Source: a virus
Lineage: Duplodnaviria > Heunggongvirae > Uroviricota > Caudoviricetes
Virus record (IMG/VR): IMGVR_UViG_2541047944_000005
Coordinates: 1 to 39,595 of that record
Reading direction: 5' to 3' (one strand)
Length of the DNA stretch: 39,595 nt
Part shown: one piece after another, positions 9,619 to 13,362 of the stretch
Layout: each line of letters starts with the position of its first letter
Position numbering within the stretch: position 1 is the stretch's first letter
Program-made: the position numbers and the translations under genes
The notes under the pieces: model-generated
What the model was told of the DNA's origin: nothing
Database searches by the model: none
The model's input: the letters and a program-made list of their open reading frames with translations, nothing else

Positions 9619-10578
9619 ATGAAAATTTGTATCGACGACGGCTCCACCAACATCAAGCTGGCATGGACTGAGAACGGCGAACGCCGCAACGCCATCAGCC
9701 CGAACAGCTTCAAGTCGGAATGGTCTGCGCCGTTCGGTGGCACGCAGCCCGCGAACTACATGCTTGATGGCGTGCGCTATGGTTTTGATCCGGTCAGCGA
9801 TCGCTTTGTCCAGACGACCGACACGCAATACCAGTACAGCGATGTGAATGTAATCGCCATTCACCACGCGCTGGTCAAATCAGGCATCACACCACAGGAA
9901 GTGGATGTGGTTGTCACCCTGCCACTGAGCGAATATTTCGACACAAACGCACAGCCGGACATGGCCAACATCAACCGCAAAAAAGCGAACGTCATGCGCC
10001 CGGTGGAGTACCAGAACGGCGAAGCATTCACTATCCGTAACGTACGGGTTATGCCTGAATCCATTCCGGCTGGCTTTAAGGCACTGGCTGACATGAGTCC
10101 GTTTGAATCCCTGCTGATTGTGGATTTAGGCGGAACCACACTGGATGTGGCAAAGGTTCAGGGGCAACTGGCAGGTATCAGCCAGGTGTTTTGCGATCCA
10201 CACGTAGGCGTTTCCCTGATGGCCGATGCCGTACTGTCGGTGATGGCCACTAACGGTATGCGTACCAGTCACCACATCGCCAATACCATTATCGAACATC
10301 GCCATGATGAAGCCTGGTTGCGCCAGCACATCCACAATGACGCGCATTACGCCAGCCTGATGGCGGTTATTCGTGAAAAGGAAGAAACACTGAAACAACG
10401 CGTGATCCGCGCGCTGGCGGGTTTTTCGGGTTACGGGCGGGTGATGGTTGTCGGTGGCGGGGCGGAGATTGTGGCACCCGCTATCCGCGAAGCCTGCGGA
10501 GTTAATGCGACTTTCATCGCGGACGGGGTGCCACAGTTTGCTCTGGTTAATGGGCTGTACGCAATGGACAAGGAGTAA
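9619..10578 (+). CDS. parM: ParM/StbA-like actin-family segregation ATPase
   Basis: 319 aa; N-terminus MKICIDDGSTNIKLAW...SPNSF...YSDVNVIAIHHAL...MPESIPAG...LLIVDLGGTTLDV...MVVGGGAEI matches plasmid R1 ParM motif by motif as recalled; AAGGA RBS. Confidence 0.85.
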   Translation: MKICIDDGSTNIKLAWTENGERRNAISPNSFKSEWSAPFGGTQPANYMLDGVRYGFDPVSDRFVQTTDTQYQYSDVNVIAIHHALVKSGITPQEVDVVVTLPLSEYFDTNAQPDMANINRKKANVMRPVEYQNGEAFTIRNVRVMPESIPAGFKALADMSPFESLLIVDLGGTTLDVAKVQGQLAGISQVFCDPHVGVSLMADAVLSVMATNGMRTSHHIANTIIEHRHDEAWLRQHIHNDAHYASLMAVIREKEETLKQRVIRALAGFSGYGRVMVVGGGAEIVAPAIREACGVNATFIADGVPQFALVNGLYAMDKE

Positions 10579-10582
10579 ACCA

Positions 10583-10894
10583 ATGACGACACCAACCAGA
10601 CGGATAAGTTTCTATCTGAAGCCCGCCGCCGTCAAGAACGAAGGCGAAGCATGCGCCTGGCTGGACAGCCTTACACCAGAAGCCCGCAAAAGTGGTCAAC
10701 GCGTGGCTTTTCTGGCCGGACTGGCACTTATGAAAATTAATCCGGCAGAGGCTTACCGACTGGCTGCATGGGCTGACGATGAAGCGTTATCCCTGACACA
10801 AACCAGGACAGAACGCCCCGTGTCACAGCCAGTACCAACCGCACAGATAACCAGTCAGATGGCCGGAAATATCCGGGCATTATTTCCCGAATAA
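10583..10894 (+). CDS. parR: ParR-like adaptor protein
   Basis: 103 aa from ATG 10583 after AAGGAG; RRISFYLKPAAV...AWLDSL...RVAFLAGLALMKINP...NIRALFPE parallels R1 ParR (RRTIAFKLNP...DTLDSI...AALTAGLALYRQDP...LRSLFPKE) as recalled. Confidence 0.7.
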   Translation: MTTPTRRISFYLKPAAVKNEGEACAWLDSLTPEARKSGQRVAFLAGLALMKINPAEAYRLAAWADDEALSLTQTRTERPVSQPVPTAQITSQMAGNIRALFPE

Positions 10895-10957: not shown

Positions 10958-11293
10958 ATGCAACACATTGACAGAGAAAAAGCGCAGCGACTGATTGAGC
11001 GAATGGAAGCGCTGGCGAAAGAAGAAAATGTCAACATCCAAAAAATAGCTGAATGTGGCCGGATAGTTCTTCGTCGTGAAAAAGACATCAAACAACTGAT
11101 GTCTGGCGAAACCAGCAAAACATGGACTTCAGGCGAGAAGACGATTTATTGCAGCTTCTGCAATAAATCCCAGTACGAAGTCACAAAGCTGATTGCCGGA
11201 CCGTCTGTTTACATCTGCAATGAGTGCGTTGATTTGTGCAATGAATTTATCAGGAGAGAAGTGACAGACCATGAAGAAAAAACGCATGAATGA
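10958..11293 (+). CDS. small protein with C-terminal ClpX-type C4 zinc-binding domain
   Basis: 111 aa; residues [38 protein letters not shown] are near-identical to the E. coli ClpX N-terminal zinc-binding domain ([37 protein letters not shown]) as recalled; no AAA+ module follows. Confidence 0.7.
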
Positions 11294-11459
11294 CGAATTT
11301 GACGGCTTTTAATTTTATCGGGGCGCACTGTCGCCATGCATGGAGAAAAACAATAAAAAAGATGAATAACTGCTCATGTCAGACGCGCTGCGGGCAAGTC
11401 TGGCACCCTGCCCTGTCTCCGCAAAGGCTGTTGTCTTAACACGACAGAGTATGCCAGCA

Positions 11460-11867
11460 TTAAATATAATCTTCTTCGTAGTCGCTGATTAATTCATTGC
11501 CATAATCAGACAGCAATTTCAAAGCAAAGGTAACTTCCTCAAGGGTAGCTATCCCCATTGCTGAAAACACCGTTAATTTAACCAGCAGCAGGGAGTTTGA
11601 AAGTTCGGAAGAGTTCATCATTAAAAATATTGATGCAGCCTGAAAAGCTGTGCGTTTATTCCCATCATGAAAGGCATGAGCCTTGGCTATACCAATCAAA
11701 TACATAGCAGCCAGAGCATGAATATCATCAACCCCTTCATAGTAGTGTAGTGTCCTGACGCGATTTAAAGCACCTTCAAGTAGCCCGTCATTGGCATTTC
11801 CGCTCTGGGGTAAAGTTTCAGCATGGATACGTTCTACTTGTTCTTTTGACAAAAACACTATGTCCAT
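11460..11867 (-). CDS. doc: Doc (death-on-curing) Fic-family toxin
   Basis: 135 aa; Fic motif HAFHDGNKRTA; start overlaps stop of the upstream antitoxin gene; AT-rich. Confidence 0.85.
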   Translation of the reverse strand: MDIVFLSKEQVERIHAETLPQSGNANDGLLEGALNRVRTLHYYEGVDDIHALAAMYLIGIAKAHAFHDGNKRTAFQAASIFLMMNSSELSNSLLLVKLTVFSAMGIATLEEVTFALKLLSDYGNELISDYEEDYI

Positions 11868-12223
11868 CAGTTATCCTCAAGCTTTTTAATGATATCCGCA
11901 TGTTTTTCTCTTGTACGCTTCATTGCATCTTCAAAAGACAATCCTTTTTTTCTCTGTGCGACAAGAGCTGGATGACGTTTTTCCAGATCTCTCACTGCAT
12001 TTATTAAGAGTGGTTGCTTCATTTTGTTTATTTGATCCCGCAGTTTTTTGGTTTTGCCAAGGACAGCCCGTATTTCAGGACTAAGATCAGAACCAGCAAG
12101 AACAACATCCTTCCCTCCCTGCGCCGTGATAACGACACTGCCACCGGAAGAAAGGTAATCCAGAATTTCACTCAGGTTCTCACGAAATTCATCATCAGTT
12201 ACAGTTTTCATATTCATTTCCAT
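11867..12223 (-). CDS. phd: Phd/YefM-family antitoxin
   Basis: 118 aa; N-terminal region EFRENLSEILDYLSSGGSVVITAQGGKDVVL resembles Phd/YefM; start may be the third ATG (12211). Longer than P1 Phd. Confidence 0.65.
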   Translation of the reverse strand: MEMNMKTVTDDEFRENLSEILDYLSSGGSVVITAQGGKDVVLAGSDLSPEIRAVLGKTKKLRDQINKMKQPLLINAVRDLEKRHPALVAQRKKGLSFEDAMKRTREKHADIIKKLEDN

Positions 12224-12823
12224 TATGCACGCCCATAACGTAAGTATAACTACTTGTTGGGCAGTAATAACACCGCCATATTTTCATTTTATACACCGCA
12301 CAATAGTGCACAAATTTGCACAATTTTTTTGAACGACTTTTTACCCTTCCGGCCCGCATGGCGGCTGGATCCGTCAAGGATCCGTGCGTGCACAAAAAAA
12401 CGCGTTTTTTTCTGCGCGCAGGTGACGGGGGAACAGCCCGCGTTTCAGGGGGTAAATAGCATTCCCTGAACGATGTCGCAGCGACACAACAGAATGGCTG
12501 TATCGCTCACGCTGAGCGTGAAAAAGACGTAAGGGGTTCTGATTTAATGGGATGAAAGGTAAGGCCGTCAAAATCGCACTGAGGCGGCGAGAACATGCAG
12601 TCAGCGCGGTGGGATTGTGTAAGAGTCTGGCCGTCGATGATGGCAATAAGTCGGAAGACGTCGTGAAATTATCTGATTGATACGGGAGCTGGAGAGTCGG
12701 GGCATAAATTTTTTATGCCCCGGCGAAGCAGCAGACAAGCGAAGCGCGTCAGTGATGCGGCACCTTGCCGACCACACTTCATAAGTGCAAAATACGAGCA
12801 AAGAAATCAATGGAGGCTGTCTT

Positions 12824-13348
12824 ATGGTCATTAATTACAAGCAGTTAAGAGAAAAACGGGAGCAGGTAAAGGAGAGCTTTCGCCGCAATGAAGATCTGAC
12901 CCCGCTTGTACGCCTTGCCCAGGGCATTGTTGATGATTATGAAATCTCGCTGGAGCTGCCATCACAGACCTGGACAGATAGCGACGGTAATCGCCAGCAT
13001 TACGTTTCATGCGGACTGGAAGCAGCCGAAGGATTTCGCAGAATGCCTTTATCCCAGATCCCTGCCGCTACCCCCAAAGCACGGGGCAGCAATGATGAGC
13101 GAAAACTGACTTTTAGTATTGAAACGGTGGTTGACGACACACCTGGCGAAGTCGCGTTCGTGCACACTCCTCTTTCGATCGCAATGTATAACGATGAAAT
13201 ACAGGTTCGCGTTAATAATAATATCGTGCCACTTAAAGAAGGTAATTCACCATACACCACCGTTTGTGAAGCCATTCAATATTACGTTCTCTCTGAAATT
13301 GATAATCTCAAGCCTGACGGCACCCAGAAAATGGTTCAACTCTGGTAA
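12824..13348 (+). CDS. hypothetical protein (174 aa), orphan cargo gene next to portal
   Basis: ATG 12824 after GGAGG RBS; followed by a clean intrinsic terminator; no motif recognised. Confidence 0.55.
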   Translation: MVINYKQLREKREQVKESFRRNEDLTPLVRLAQGIVDDYEISLELPSQTWTDSDGNRQHYVSCGLEAAEGFRRMPLSQIPAATPKARGSNDERKLTFSIETVVDDTPGEVAFVHTPLSIAMYNDEIQVRVNNNIVPLKEGNSPYTTVCEAIQYYVLSEIDNLKPDGTQKMVQLW

Positions 13349-13362
13349 AAAGAACAGCCCCA

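Follow-up and report, generated by a model that had tools for sequence, protein, structure and literature searches.

The locus considered here raises the question of what is encoded by a small pair of minus-strand genes located between the replication and portal genes of a P2-like prophage, how their expression is controlled and what they do for the phage that carries them. The window, that is, the whole 39,595-nucleotide stretch of viral DNA analysed, contains two overlapping minus-strand open reading frames in an AT-rich patch of around 40% GC, as the earlier note had described; the GC fraction is 0.39-0.42 over positions 11450-12350, compared with 0.50-0.59 in the flanks. The two genes form a genuine toxin-antitoxin operon of type II, which RefSeq already annotates as Phd/Doc. 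Our reading of it, to which, taken as a whole, we assign a probability of roughly 0.6, is that of a type II Phd-Doc operon carried on a cargo cassette of around 1 kb, with its operator most likely in its own leader and with a probable role in abortive infection.

The downstream gene, doc (11460-11867, minus strand; RefSeq WP_001561009), encodes a 135-residue Doc-family toxin with a Fic fold. The protein matches the Pfam Fic family (PF02661; E 3.5e-11, 44.2 bits, cutoff 24), the NCBIfam model DOC_P1 (TIGR01550; 53.6 bits, cutoff 38.65), the Doc-like toxin group PHROG 577 (2.9e-26) and the structure of P1 Doc (3k33; E 6e-13, around 35% identity over 97 residues). A Fic-motif toxin had been proposed at this position, and the lack of the full catalytic motif on alignment had been named as the result that would speak against it; aligned to P1 Doc, the motif is complete. 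The codons at 11652-11678 (minus strand; reverse complement CAT GCC TTT CAT GAT GGG AAT AAA CGC) specify H64-A-F-H-D-G-N-K-R72, and this HAFHDGNKR segment aligns to HIFNDANKR of P1 Doc (H66-R74), with the motif residues H, F, D, N, K and R at identical positions. The segment fits the Doc consensus HXFX(D/N)(A/G)NKR (PMC13034048), with a lysine in place of the second glycine of the AMPylating Fic motif, and is invariant in eight family members plus P1. Doc is a small single-domain protein whose gene lies directly downstream of the antitoxin gene, and the same arrangement is observed in nine intact loci. Across loci the toxin is 74-89% identical, being more conserved than Phd, and this identity together with the invariance of the catalytic motif points to purifying selection on its activity. 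Phosphorylation of EF-Tu at Thr382 and growth arrest are the activities that define a toxin of the Doc family. By homology with P1 Doc, which phosphorylates EF-Tu (PMC4803016), the toxin described here, with its kinase-type motif HxFxDGNKR, would also phosphorylate EF-Tu and thereby arrest translation, and we infer that the cassette carries such an EF-Tu kinase activity.

The upstream gene encodes a Phd-like antitoxin, for which the open reading frame was called at 11867-12223 (minus strand), corresponding to 118 residues. The start at 12211, which gives a protein of 114 residues (11867-12211), is likely the true one, considering that it is the start used in RefSeq (WP_001561011) and that three of the other loci (L005, L007 and L011) do not share the upstream ATG. 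The beginning of this shorter protein, MKTVTD, is conserved and is preceded by a GGAA Shine-Dalgarno-like site. The phd stop codon and the start of doc share one base (TGATG), an overlap through which phd and doc would be translationally coupled. At 114 residues, compared with 73 for P1 Phd, the antitoxin is indeed unusually long, as had been pointed out. It scores 29.2 bits against Pfam PhdYeFM (PF02604; cutoff 29.8), a marginal miss in which the match comprises residues 5-42 of the 118-residue frame (1-38 of the 114-residue protein) and only profile positions 1-39 of 74, and 16.6 bits against TIGR01552 (cutoff 20.8); several distant long-Phd relatives pass the family threshold at 30-37 bits. 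The profile search suggested by the earlier note therefore places the toxin above the Pfam and NCBIfam cutoffs and the antitoxin marginally under both of its curated ones.

Residues 1-42 of the antitoxin (12086-12211, minus strand) are predicted to form a dimerisation and DNA-binding domain of the Phd/YefM fold. The AF2 model, of moderate confidence (pLDDT of 70 overall, around 82 in the N-domain and below 65 in the C-terminal half), displays the beta-alpha-beta-beta-alpha order of this fold (E2-5, H6-21, E25-29, E35-39, H45-63). In Foldseek the first 39 matches were antitoxin structures, almost all of them Phd/YefM (best E 1.3e-3), and the top ones were P1 Phd/YefM N-domains, with 4zlx_A giving an rmsd of 1.0 Å over 39 residues at 33% identity. 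Using hhalign against P1 Phd, only residues 9-38 were aligned.

At the opposite end of the protein, residues 91-114 (LSFEDAMKRTREKHADIIKKLEDN; 11870-11941, minus strand) constitute a near-invariant segment with a predicted helix at 93-113. The mean pairwise identity is 91% in these 24 residues, 68% in the N-domain and 49% in the middle of the protein, and distant long-Phd relatives whose linkers differ have the same, family-specific motif at their end. By PDB profile search and hhalign, which aligned the N-domain only, no homology to the Doc-binding helix of P1 Phd (residues 52-73) was detectable in the around 60 C-terminal residues, including the last 24, so that we infer the mode of neutralisation from conservation only: the C-terminal 24-residue helix is probably the Doc-neutralising segment. 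The C-terminus of P1 Phd folds on Doc (PMC4803016). In the arrangement we propose, the N-terminal Phd/YefM domain would dimerise and, by analogy, repress the promoter from which it is transcribed, a variable helical linker of around 50 residues would join this domain to the C-terminal helix, and the invariant helix would fold onto Doc and neutralise it. Together, the Phd/YefM domain, the variable linker and the near-invariant C-terminal helix of 24 residues define a rare "long Phd" lineage, which is modestly new.

Both genes belong to an exchangeable cargo cassette of around 1,007 bp (approximately 11291-12297, minus strand), in which doc is followed by 169 bp of non-coding DNA and phd is preceded by a leader of 86 bp. 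Its edges were obtained by sequence comparison with phage P88, which shares the backbone without the phd-doc cassette: homology ends at approximately 11290 on the left and restarts exactly at 12298 on the right. The whole cassette is present in 20 of the 1,106 E. coli genomes having the same backbone and missing from the remaining ~98%; in P88 and in four further genomes, this backbone holds other cargo. According to the annotation of an identical E. coli locus, the host element is a P88-like (P2-family, Xuanwuvirus) E. coli prophage, integrated beside ppa and provided with an integrase, and the slot is bordered by gpA, for the replication endonuclease, and gpQ, for the portal, and adjoins a cos site whose position is taken from a weak alignment to P2. 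This slot is the published P2 gpA-gpQ defence hotspot (PMC9122126), and the proposal that the pair is prophage cargo is supported. The phage in the window also encodes parM and stbB. An Rfam search of 11100-12900 gave nothing real, and the non-coding DNA that follows doc showed, on folding, no structure beyond that of shuffled controls.

With regard to the control of the operon, the earlier note had seen TGCACAA twice, 10 bp apart, upstream of phd and had taken it for an autoregulatory operator. Both copies are present (12307-12313 and 12317-12323), and the shorter GCACAA occurs three times with a 10-bp period (at 12298, 12308 and 12318, the block spanning 12298-12323), with a fourth TGCACAA at 12389. 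Counted singly, the heptamer shows no enrichment in the window (11 copies, with 9.6 expected); GCACAA-N4-GCACAA, the phased pair, was found twice where 0.01 would be expected by chance. This non-random phasing, the position of the repeats 87-112 bp upstream of the phd start codon, a repeat-to-phd distance that is constant in eight same-orientation loci, and the GTGCAC palindrome of the central copy together with GTGCA-N6-TGCAC inverted repeats are all consistent with an operator for Phd or Phd-Doc. The repeats, however, are part of the phage backbone, of which they form the first 26 bp common to P88: P88 and 1,103 of the 1,107 matching E. coli records contain the block, and around 1,100 E. coli genomes carry it without phd-doc, beside unrelated cargo in either orientation. 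In two further loci (L014 and L015) the repeats stay around 380 bp from the portal gene and around 1.4 kb from the phd remnant, and in the two loci where the module is inverted (L007 and L008) they are missing upstream of it. A long distance also separates them from the best -10 candidate, which lies downstream; the operators known for Phd are palindromic and near the -10 element (PMC13034048; PDB 4zm0). We therefore reject the assignment of TGCACAA as the phd-doc operator, which we now consider very improbable.

Most likely the repeats serve a phage function, either as a cos or packaging accessory or as a transcription insulator, and whatever binds them may exert a secondary regulatory influence on phd, given the fixed distance in eight loci. 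Other roles were considered and set aside. A ParR/StbB centromere finds no ParM match in the fetched stretches of L003-L005 and L010-L015, all of which except L013 keep the repeat in exact or variant form. As a rightward intrinsic terminator, the conserved GTGCA-N6-TGCAC hairpin with its T7 folds weakly (-6.1 kcal/mol, z -1.5), which makes this role possible and unconvincing. An Ogr-type TGT-N12-ACA site matches at five of six positions, by eye and in one register only, and a -35 element of a leftward promoter has no acceptable -10 at the required spacing. A literature search on cos-accessory repeats of P2 returned nothing useful. In around 20% of complete E. coli genomes, the triple repeat marks the right-hand boundary of the hotspot. 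A palindrome with 18-nt arms (12385-12420; RNA fold of -18.4 kcal/mol, z -2.6), conserved in P88, lies in the backbone between the repeats and the probable cos. As a separate observation, P2 and P4 contain a counterpart of the triple repeat with TGCAT.

The promoter and operator of phd-doc most likely reside in the cassette-borne 86-bp leader (12212-12297, minus strand) and not in the GCACAA repeats; this candidate region, delimited by sequence comparison, is conserved in eight loci from several genera. By eye, it harbors on the minus strand a candidate -10 element, TATACT (12243-12248), and a weak candidate -35 element, TTATTA (12265-12270), with a predicted transcription start at about 12236. 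It also contains a TTACG pentamer (12239-12243), found at -32/-34 in seven of nine loci, including the inverted-orientation L007, and two short palindromes, TTATG-N6-CATAA (12223-12238) and a second one at 12242-12255, neither of which is conserved across the family. A consensus promoter scan reported none on the minus strand. When a conserved palindromic operator was sought over nine upstream regions, only TTACG at -32/-34 was common with the inverted-orientation locus, which is suggestive. In the inverted-orientation copy, which lacks the repeats, a separate palindrome surrounds a -10 element and TTACG is found at -34. Characterised Phd antitoxins bind palindromes or inverted repeats and not direct repeats (PMC13034048; PDB 4zm0).

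Compared with P1 Phd-Doc (3k33, 3hs2, 4zm0), the locus shares the order of the genes, with the antitoxin first, the predicted fold of the antitoxin N-domain and a temperate phage as carrier. Besides the longer antitoxin, it differs in an extra acidic tail of around 15 residues in Doc, in the carrier, which is an integrated P2-like prophage here and a plasmid prophage in P1, and in that no palindromic double operator is evident. The same toxin family is found in Salmonella Typhimurium (STM3559/STM3558) and in the Phd-Doc of Enterococcus faecalis (9vzc, which matches Doc at E 7e-5), both of them in chromosomal, non-phage contexts unlike the one described here. Both antitoxins are taken to be of the short type; the Salmonella Phd is the classical one of 73 residues and not of the long-Phd lineage, and the hot-spot spacing F..(I/A)M of its neutralisation peptide (PMC9207808) resembles, in our own comparison, F93-x-x-A96-M97 of our antitoxin. 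In the E. faecalis Phd, of which residues 52-79 are resolved in the crystal structure, the N-domain is AbrB-like, unlike the Phd/YefM fold predicted here. The PADLOC systems PDC-S23 and PDC-M59B show weak Fic-domain similarity to Doc (E 7e-6 to 6e-4); the PDC-S23 models have 312-331 positions and match in the Fic core only, the antitoxin gave no PADLOC match, and the locus does not belong to these systems. In position the locus resembles P2 old-tin, which occupies the same cos-adjacent slot between gpA and the portal gene in the same leftward orientation and whose annotated transcript starts are around 150 bp from cos. From Old, Tin, the retrons, DprA-PRTase and the other systems of the hotspot it would differ in mechanism, its effector being an EF-Tu kinase toxin by homology.

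All 13 examined loci with an antitoxin of the long-Phd family are located between the portal gene and gpA of P2-like prophages, in six or more genera (Escherichia, Edwardsiella, Enterobacter, Klebsiella, Citrobacter and Symbiopectobacterium). The cassette is present in 20 of 5,426 complete E. coli genomes, with six loci in 185,579 species-representative genomes. No close relatives were found in 72,556 plasmids and 50,697 phage records, the sole match among the latter being the Salmonella STM3559/STM3558 locus with 30% identity to the antitoxin N-domain. Decayed copies occur at three loci (L013-L015) and pseudogenised ones in Symbiopectobacterium.

The P2 hotspot adjoins cos and is enriched in validated defence systems (PMC9122126). 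Table S5 of Rousset et al. (2022) lists WP_001561011 at this hotspot together with StbA, Plasmid_stab_B, zf-C4_ClpX and Fic; the three systems that these authors name as newly validated do not include phd-doc, and no Doc-based anti-phage system is among those validated in the hotspot study (PMC9122126). Given the restriction of the lineage to P2-like hotspots, in which defence genes are enriched, its selected role is most likely an abortive-infection-type exclusion of competing phages, with prophage retention ("death on curing") as a close second; both roles had been raised in the earlier note and are plausible. During infection, host shut-off would stop the resupply of the labile antitoxin and Doc would be freed. 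Addiction is the founding function of Phd-Doc in the plasmid prophage P1 (PMC4803016), and it is a real possibility, if an unlikely one, that the module acts here mainly in the same manner, Doc poisoning any cell from which the prophage is lost, be it through excision or as an episome partitioned by the neighbouring ParM/StbB. The parM and stbB genes of the window phage, one backbone match on a 129-kb plasmid and the suggestion of Rousset et al. that such P2-like phages may persist as plasmids (PMC9122126) are in agreement with it; the integration beside ppa with an integrase, the lack of a ParM match in the fetched stretch of most toxin-antitoxin loci (L003-L005 and L010-L013), the decay of the copies at L013-L015 and a rapid turnover of hotspot cargo that fits poorly with a self-retention module argue against it. 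The rarity of the cassette and the pseudogenised Symbiopectobacterium copies are what would be expected of a selfish or neutral hitchhiker, of no benefit to phage or host and kept only through the difficulty of losing a toxin-antitoxin pair, but its persistence over several genera, always in the same phage slot, and the purifying selection on Doc activity make this explanation improbable.

A more specific form of the abortive-infection role, which we put forward tentatively and regard as unlikely, is that long-Phd/Doc is a dedicated P2-family abortive-infection system in which the expanded antitoxin, with its linker and C-terminal helix, acts as an infection sensor. The antitoxin would then be lost, for example, by faster proteolysis or by displacement by a phage protein. 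If this were true, the system would be the first defence system with a Doc EF-Tu kinase as effector, and the diversification of the antitoxin against a near-fixed toxin would reflect an arms race with phage counter-measures.

The locus itself is ordinary: the toxin-antitoxin pair was already annotated, and the phage defence hotspot that holds it was already published. The corrected operator assignment indicates that a conserved phased repeat beside a cargo can belong to the vehicle and not to the cargo, and the triple repeat may bear on packaging in the P2 family or on the exchange of hotspot cargo. The analysis also defines a coherent small sub-lineage of Phd-Doc, with a long antitoxin and a distinct, invariant motif of putative neutralising function, found here only in P2-like hotspots of Enterobacterales. 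This sub-lineage offers a clean test case for whether translation kinases of the Doc type take part in phage exclusion.

The minus-strand ORF at 11460-11867 encodes a 135-residue protein that scores above the curated cutoffs for Fic (Pfam) and DOC_P1 (NCBIfam), matches PHROG 577 ('Doc-like toxin') and aligns with the crystal structures of P1 Doc (E 6e-13), confirming the Fic-motif Doc toxin proposed in an earlier note on this DNA. The motif, whose incompleteness would, for the earlier note, have been grounds for rejecting the toxin, proved complete on alignment: HAFHDGNKR falls on HIFNDANKR of P1 Doc, every position of the Doc-type motif HXFX(D/N)(A/G)NKR (PMC13034048) is present, and the motif is invariant across eight family members. 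The gene pair also lies in an AT-rich patch, as had been noticed, with a GC content of 0.39-0.42 against 0.50-0.59 in the surroundings.

The toxin gene shares one base (TGATG) with the phd ORF (11867-12211, minus strand). The true start of phd is most likely at 12211, considering that the RefSeq start is located there, that the ATG at 12223 is CTG or missing in three related loci (L005, L011 and L007), and that the GGAA site is conserved. The resulting antitoxin of 114 residues, compared with 73 for P1 Phd, is indeed unusually long. Pfam PhdYeFM covers only its first ~40 residues and falls just short of the cutoff (29.2 against 29.8 bits), and its match to NCBIfam phd_fam is under threshold. 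The AF2 model, obtained from 15 homologues with moderate confidence (pLDDT 70 overall, ~82 in the N-domain), displays a beta-alpha-beta-beta-alpha layout followed by three further helices. Using Foldseek against the PDB, ranks 1-39 were antitoxin structures, nearly all of them P1 Phd, YefM and close relatives, the top match being 4zlx_A (rmsd 1.0 Å over 39 residues, 33% identity). A PDB profile search and hhalign against P1 Phd aligned the N-domain only, leaving the remainder of the antitoxin unaligned.

Conservation of the antitoxin is tripartite, with mean pairwise identities in the family alignment of 68% for the N-domain, 49% for the middle (residues 43-90) and 91% for the last 24 residues (LSFEDAMKRTREKHADIIKKLEDN). 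When 1.84 billion representatives were searched exhaustively with an HMM, only 60 proteins came up at E <= 1e-3, and the relatives inspected combine a Phd half-domain, a linker of highly variable length (proteins of 107-214 residues) and a common ending, ...SF(E/Q)(E/D)A...(K/R)HA.IIK.LED(K/N). By likeness to the disordered C-terminus of P1 Phd, which binds and neutralises Doc (PMC4803016), we infer that the terminal helix may be the Doc-binding, neutralising element.

The antitoxin family is small, comprising 19 clusters at 90% identity among 5.8 billion proteins and six loci in 185,579 species-representative genomes, and a search for close relatives in 72,556 plasmids and 50,697 phage records found none. 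All 13 loci examined, drawn from Escherichia, Edwardsiella, Enterobacter, Klebsiella, Citrobacter, Symbiopectobacterium and metagenomic assemblies, are P2-like prophages in which phd-doc lies between the portal gene and gpA, in reversed orientation in two assemblies (L007 and L008). The full cassette is present in 20 of 5,426 complete E. coli genomes. The Symbiopectobacterium copies are decaying: in one (L013, 4344-4751) doc is interrupted by an in-frame stop and the portal gene is frameshifted, and in two others (L014/L015, 4001-4081) phd is reduced to its last 27 codons and doc is gone. Compared with the window, loci L003-L013 show identities of 74-89% for Doc and 52-64% for Phd, the toxin being much more conserved; in L003 the 86-bp leader and flanks are ~93% identical, yet Phd is just 64% identical.

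The 1.2 kb surrounding phd-doc matches the E. coli CB6837 chromosome at 100% identity; there, the copy belongs to a P2-family prophage annotated as inserted next to ppa/ytfQ. This prophage carries, in order, an integrase, a C-like repressor, Cox, gpA (replication endonuclease), ParM, a StbB-like partition protein, a ClpX zinc-finger-only protein and doc/phd, beyond which lie a hypothetical gene, the portal, the terminase and P2-type capsid and tail genes. The nearest named phage to the window is P88 (Xuanwuvirus, Peduoviridae). The DNA separating the integrase start from the end of the C-like repressor gene holds, at 1450-1483, two tandem copies of the decamer ACAAACCAAA, then a third as ACAAACCATC and part of a fourth (ACAA); these may form a binding array of the attP-arm or Int/IHF type.

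The gpA-gpQ region adjoining cos is a known hotspot: 1,650 gene arrangements have been described in it, defence systems accounting for many, and in about a quarter of P2-like phages it includes a partition system (Rousset et al., 2022; PMC9122126). In the window, the integrated P2-like prophage encodes, at 9619-10894 (plus strand), ParM (StbA_N and ParM C-terminal domains, E 1e-82) together with a partition protein of the Plasmid_stab_B family, and one backbone match comes from an E. coli plasmid of 129 kb (NZ_CP183151.1), which together are consistent with the published suggestion of plasmid maintenance for such phages. A second variable slot, from the probable cos site to the portal gene (12761-13362), holds an insertion of ~600 bp whose ORF (12824-13348, plus strand) encodes a 174-residue protein of PHROG 5091 (E 8e-67; no assigned function), with no match in Pfam, NCBIfam or PADLOC; a gene of equal size and position occurs in two comparison loci (L018/L019) and is missing from P88, L017 and L020. 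Adjoining the cassette, a plus-strand gene (10958-11293) encodes a 111-residue protein with scarcely anything beyond the C4 zinc finger of the ClpX N-terminus (Pfam zf-C4_ClpX 8.5e-18; PHROG 6797, no assigned function). Since P1 Phd is a ClpXP substrate, it is suggestive that a putative decoy of the ClpX N-domain adjoins a Phd-type antitoxin; against such a link, the gene belongs to the backbone (P88 gp19, L003) and is missing from L004 and L005 despite the toxin-antitoxin pair there.

Upstream of phd, TGCACAA does occur twice, at 12307 and 12317, as part of a fuller triple repeat of GCACAA at 12298, 12308 and 12318. Taken singly, the heptamer shows no enrichment across the window (11 observed, 9.6 expected), but the phased pair does (2 observed, 0.01 expected). 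The proposal that it acts as an autoregulatory operator finds no support. Nucleotide homology with P88, which has another gene in the slot and no phd-doc, restarts precisely at 12298, the first GCACAA, and continues to about 12760; P88 reads TGCACAATAGTGCACAAATTTGCACAA directly beyond the terminator of the cargo gene it carries. The interval 12270-12520 is matched by 1,107 E. coli records (1,103 covering at least 80% of the query), all listed cassette-less records align from 12293-12298 on, and the genes to the left in four sampled among them are unrelated and point either way (ead/Ea22-like genes; DUF4760 with a hypothetical gene; other hypotheticals). The exact triple repeat recurs in Edwardsiella, Enterobacter, Citrobacter and Symbiopectobacterium prophages, and in L014/L015 it lies ~380 bp from the portal gene compared with ~1.4 kb from the phd remnant. 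At the inverted modules (L007/L008) it is absent, and ATTACGT-N8-ACGTAAT surrounds a GATAAT -10 upstream of phd instead. Phd proteins characterised to date, moreover, bind inverted repeats (PDB 4zm0/4zm2; PMC13034048). Taken together, these sequence comparisons indicate that the triple repeat is a backbone element at the right-hand boundary of the exchangeable slot and not a phd-doc operator; some regulatory influence on the module is very improbable.

The real control region is probably within the 86 bp that the cassette supplies upstream of phd (12212-12297), a stretch that eight loci from several genera preserve together with the module. On the minus strand this leader contains a good candidate -10, TATACT (12243-12248; TATAAT in L005), and, across a 16-bp spacer, a weak candidate -35, TTATTA. 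Directly after the -10 lies a TTACG pentamer, which is equally far from the start codon in the inverted-orientation locus, where it also forms part of a palindrome with 7-bp arms. Both arms of a further palindrome, TTATG-N6-CATAA or TCATG-N6-CATGA (window and L003), vary together. A consensus promoter scan reported no minus-strand promoter, and we treat the promoter and palindrome features as leads only.

As for the triple repeat itself, a ParR-type centromere was discarded, since phage loci lacking a ParM hit retain it. On the plus strand, copies two and three form a short, weak hairpin (-6.1 kcal/mol, z -1.5) followed by T7, kept in distant relatives. At the equivalent place in P2 (L009 4453-4481, corresponding to P2 33452-33480), three TGCAT(T) copies spaced 10-12 bp apart lie just upstream of annotated old-tin transcript starts and ~120-140 bp from cosR, the first overlapping the inferred -35 of the annotated old-tin start. 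P4 (L021) carries three TGCAT copies ~90-130 bp from its right end, and over both phages the spacing is 10-13 bp at ~90-140 bp left of cos. The GCACAA triplet of P88-like phages may correspond to these P2 and P4 triplets. The cos site of the window is probably at about 12560-12705, which aligns with the P2 cos junction only weakly and with gaps. Between repeat and cos (12367-12420) are further backbone elements, also found in P88 with small differences: two copies of GGATCCGT 11 bp apart (12367 and 12378) and a palindrome with 18-nt arms, TGCGTGCACAAAAAAACG/CGTTTTTTTCTGCGCGCA (12385-12420; RNA fold -18.4 kcal/mol, z -2.6). The two most reasonable ideas for the triple repeat are a putative cos-accessory protein-binding site and a transcription insulator.

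The toxin-antitoxin call of the earlier note is thus correct and its observation stands, but the module was already annotated and catalogued. Table S5 of Rousset et al. (2022; PMC9122126) lists this very antitoxin, WP_001561011, alongside StbA, Plasmid_stab_B, zf-C4_ClpX and Fic. The module is not one of the three newly validated systems named in that paper and, as far as the sources show, is listed without characterisation. From family knowledge, Doc would phosphorylate EF-Tu and block translation, and the antitoxin would be labile, as P1 Phd is degraded by ClpXP, with its C-terminus binding Doc and its N-domain repressing the operon. What is new is limited to a distinct long-Phd/Doc sub-lineage, confined among the loci examined to P2-family hotspots. 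Its favoured role is phage exclusion through abortive infection, given that the lineage is seen nowhere but in a phage slot enriched for defence, with no tie to the partition genes; prophage retention by 'death on curing' is nearly as likely, and the module may also be a purely selfish element.
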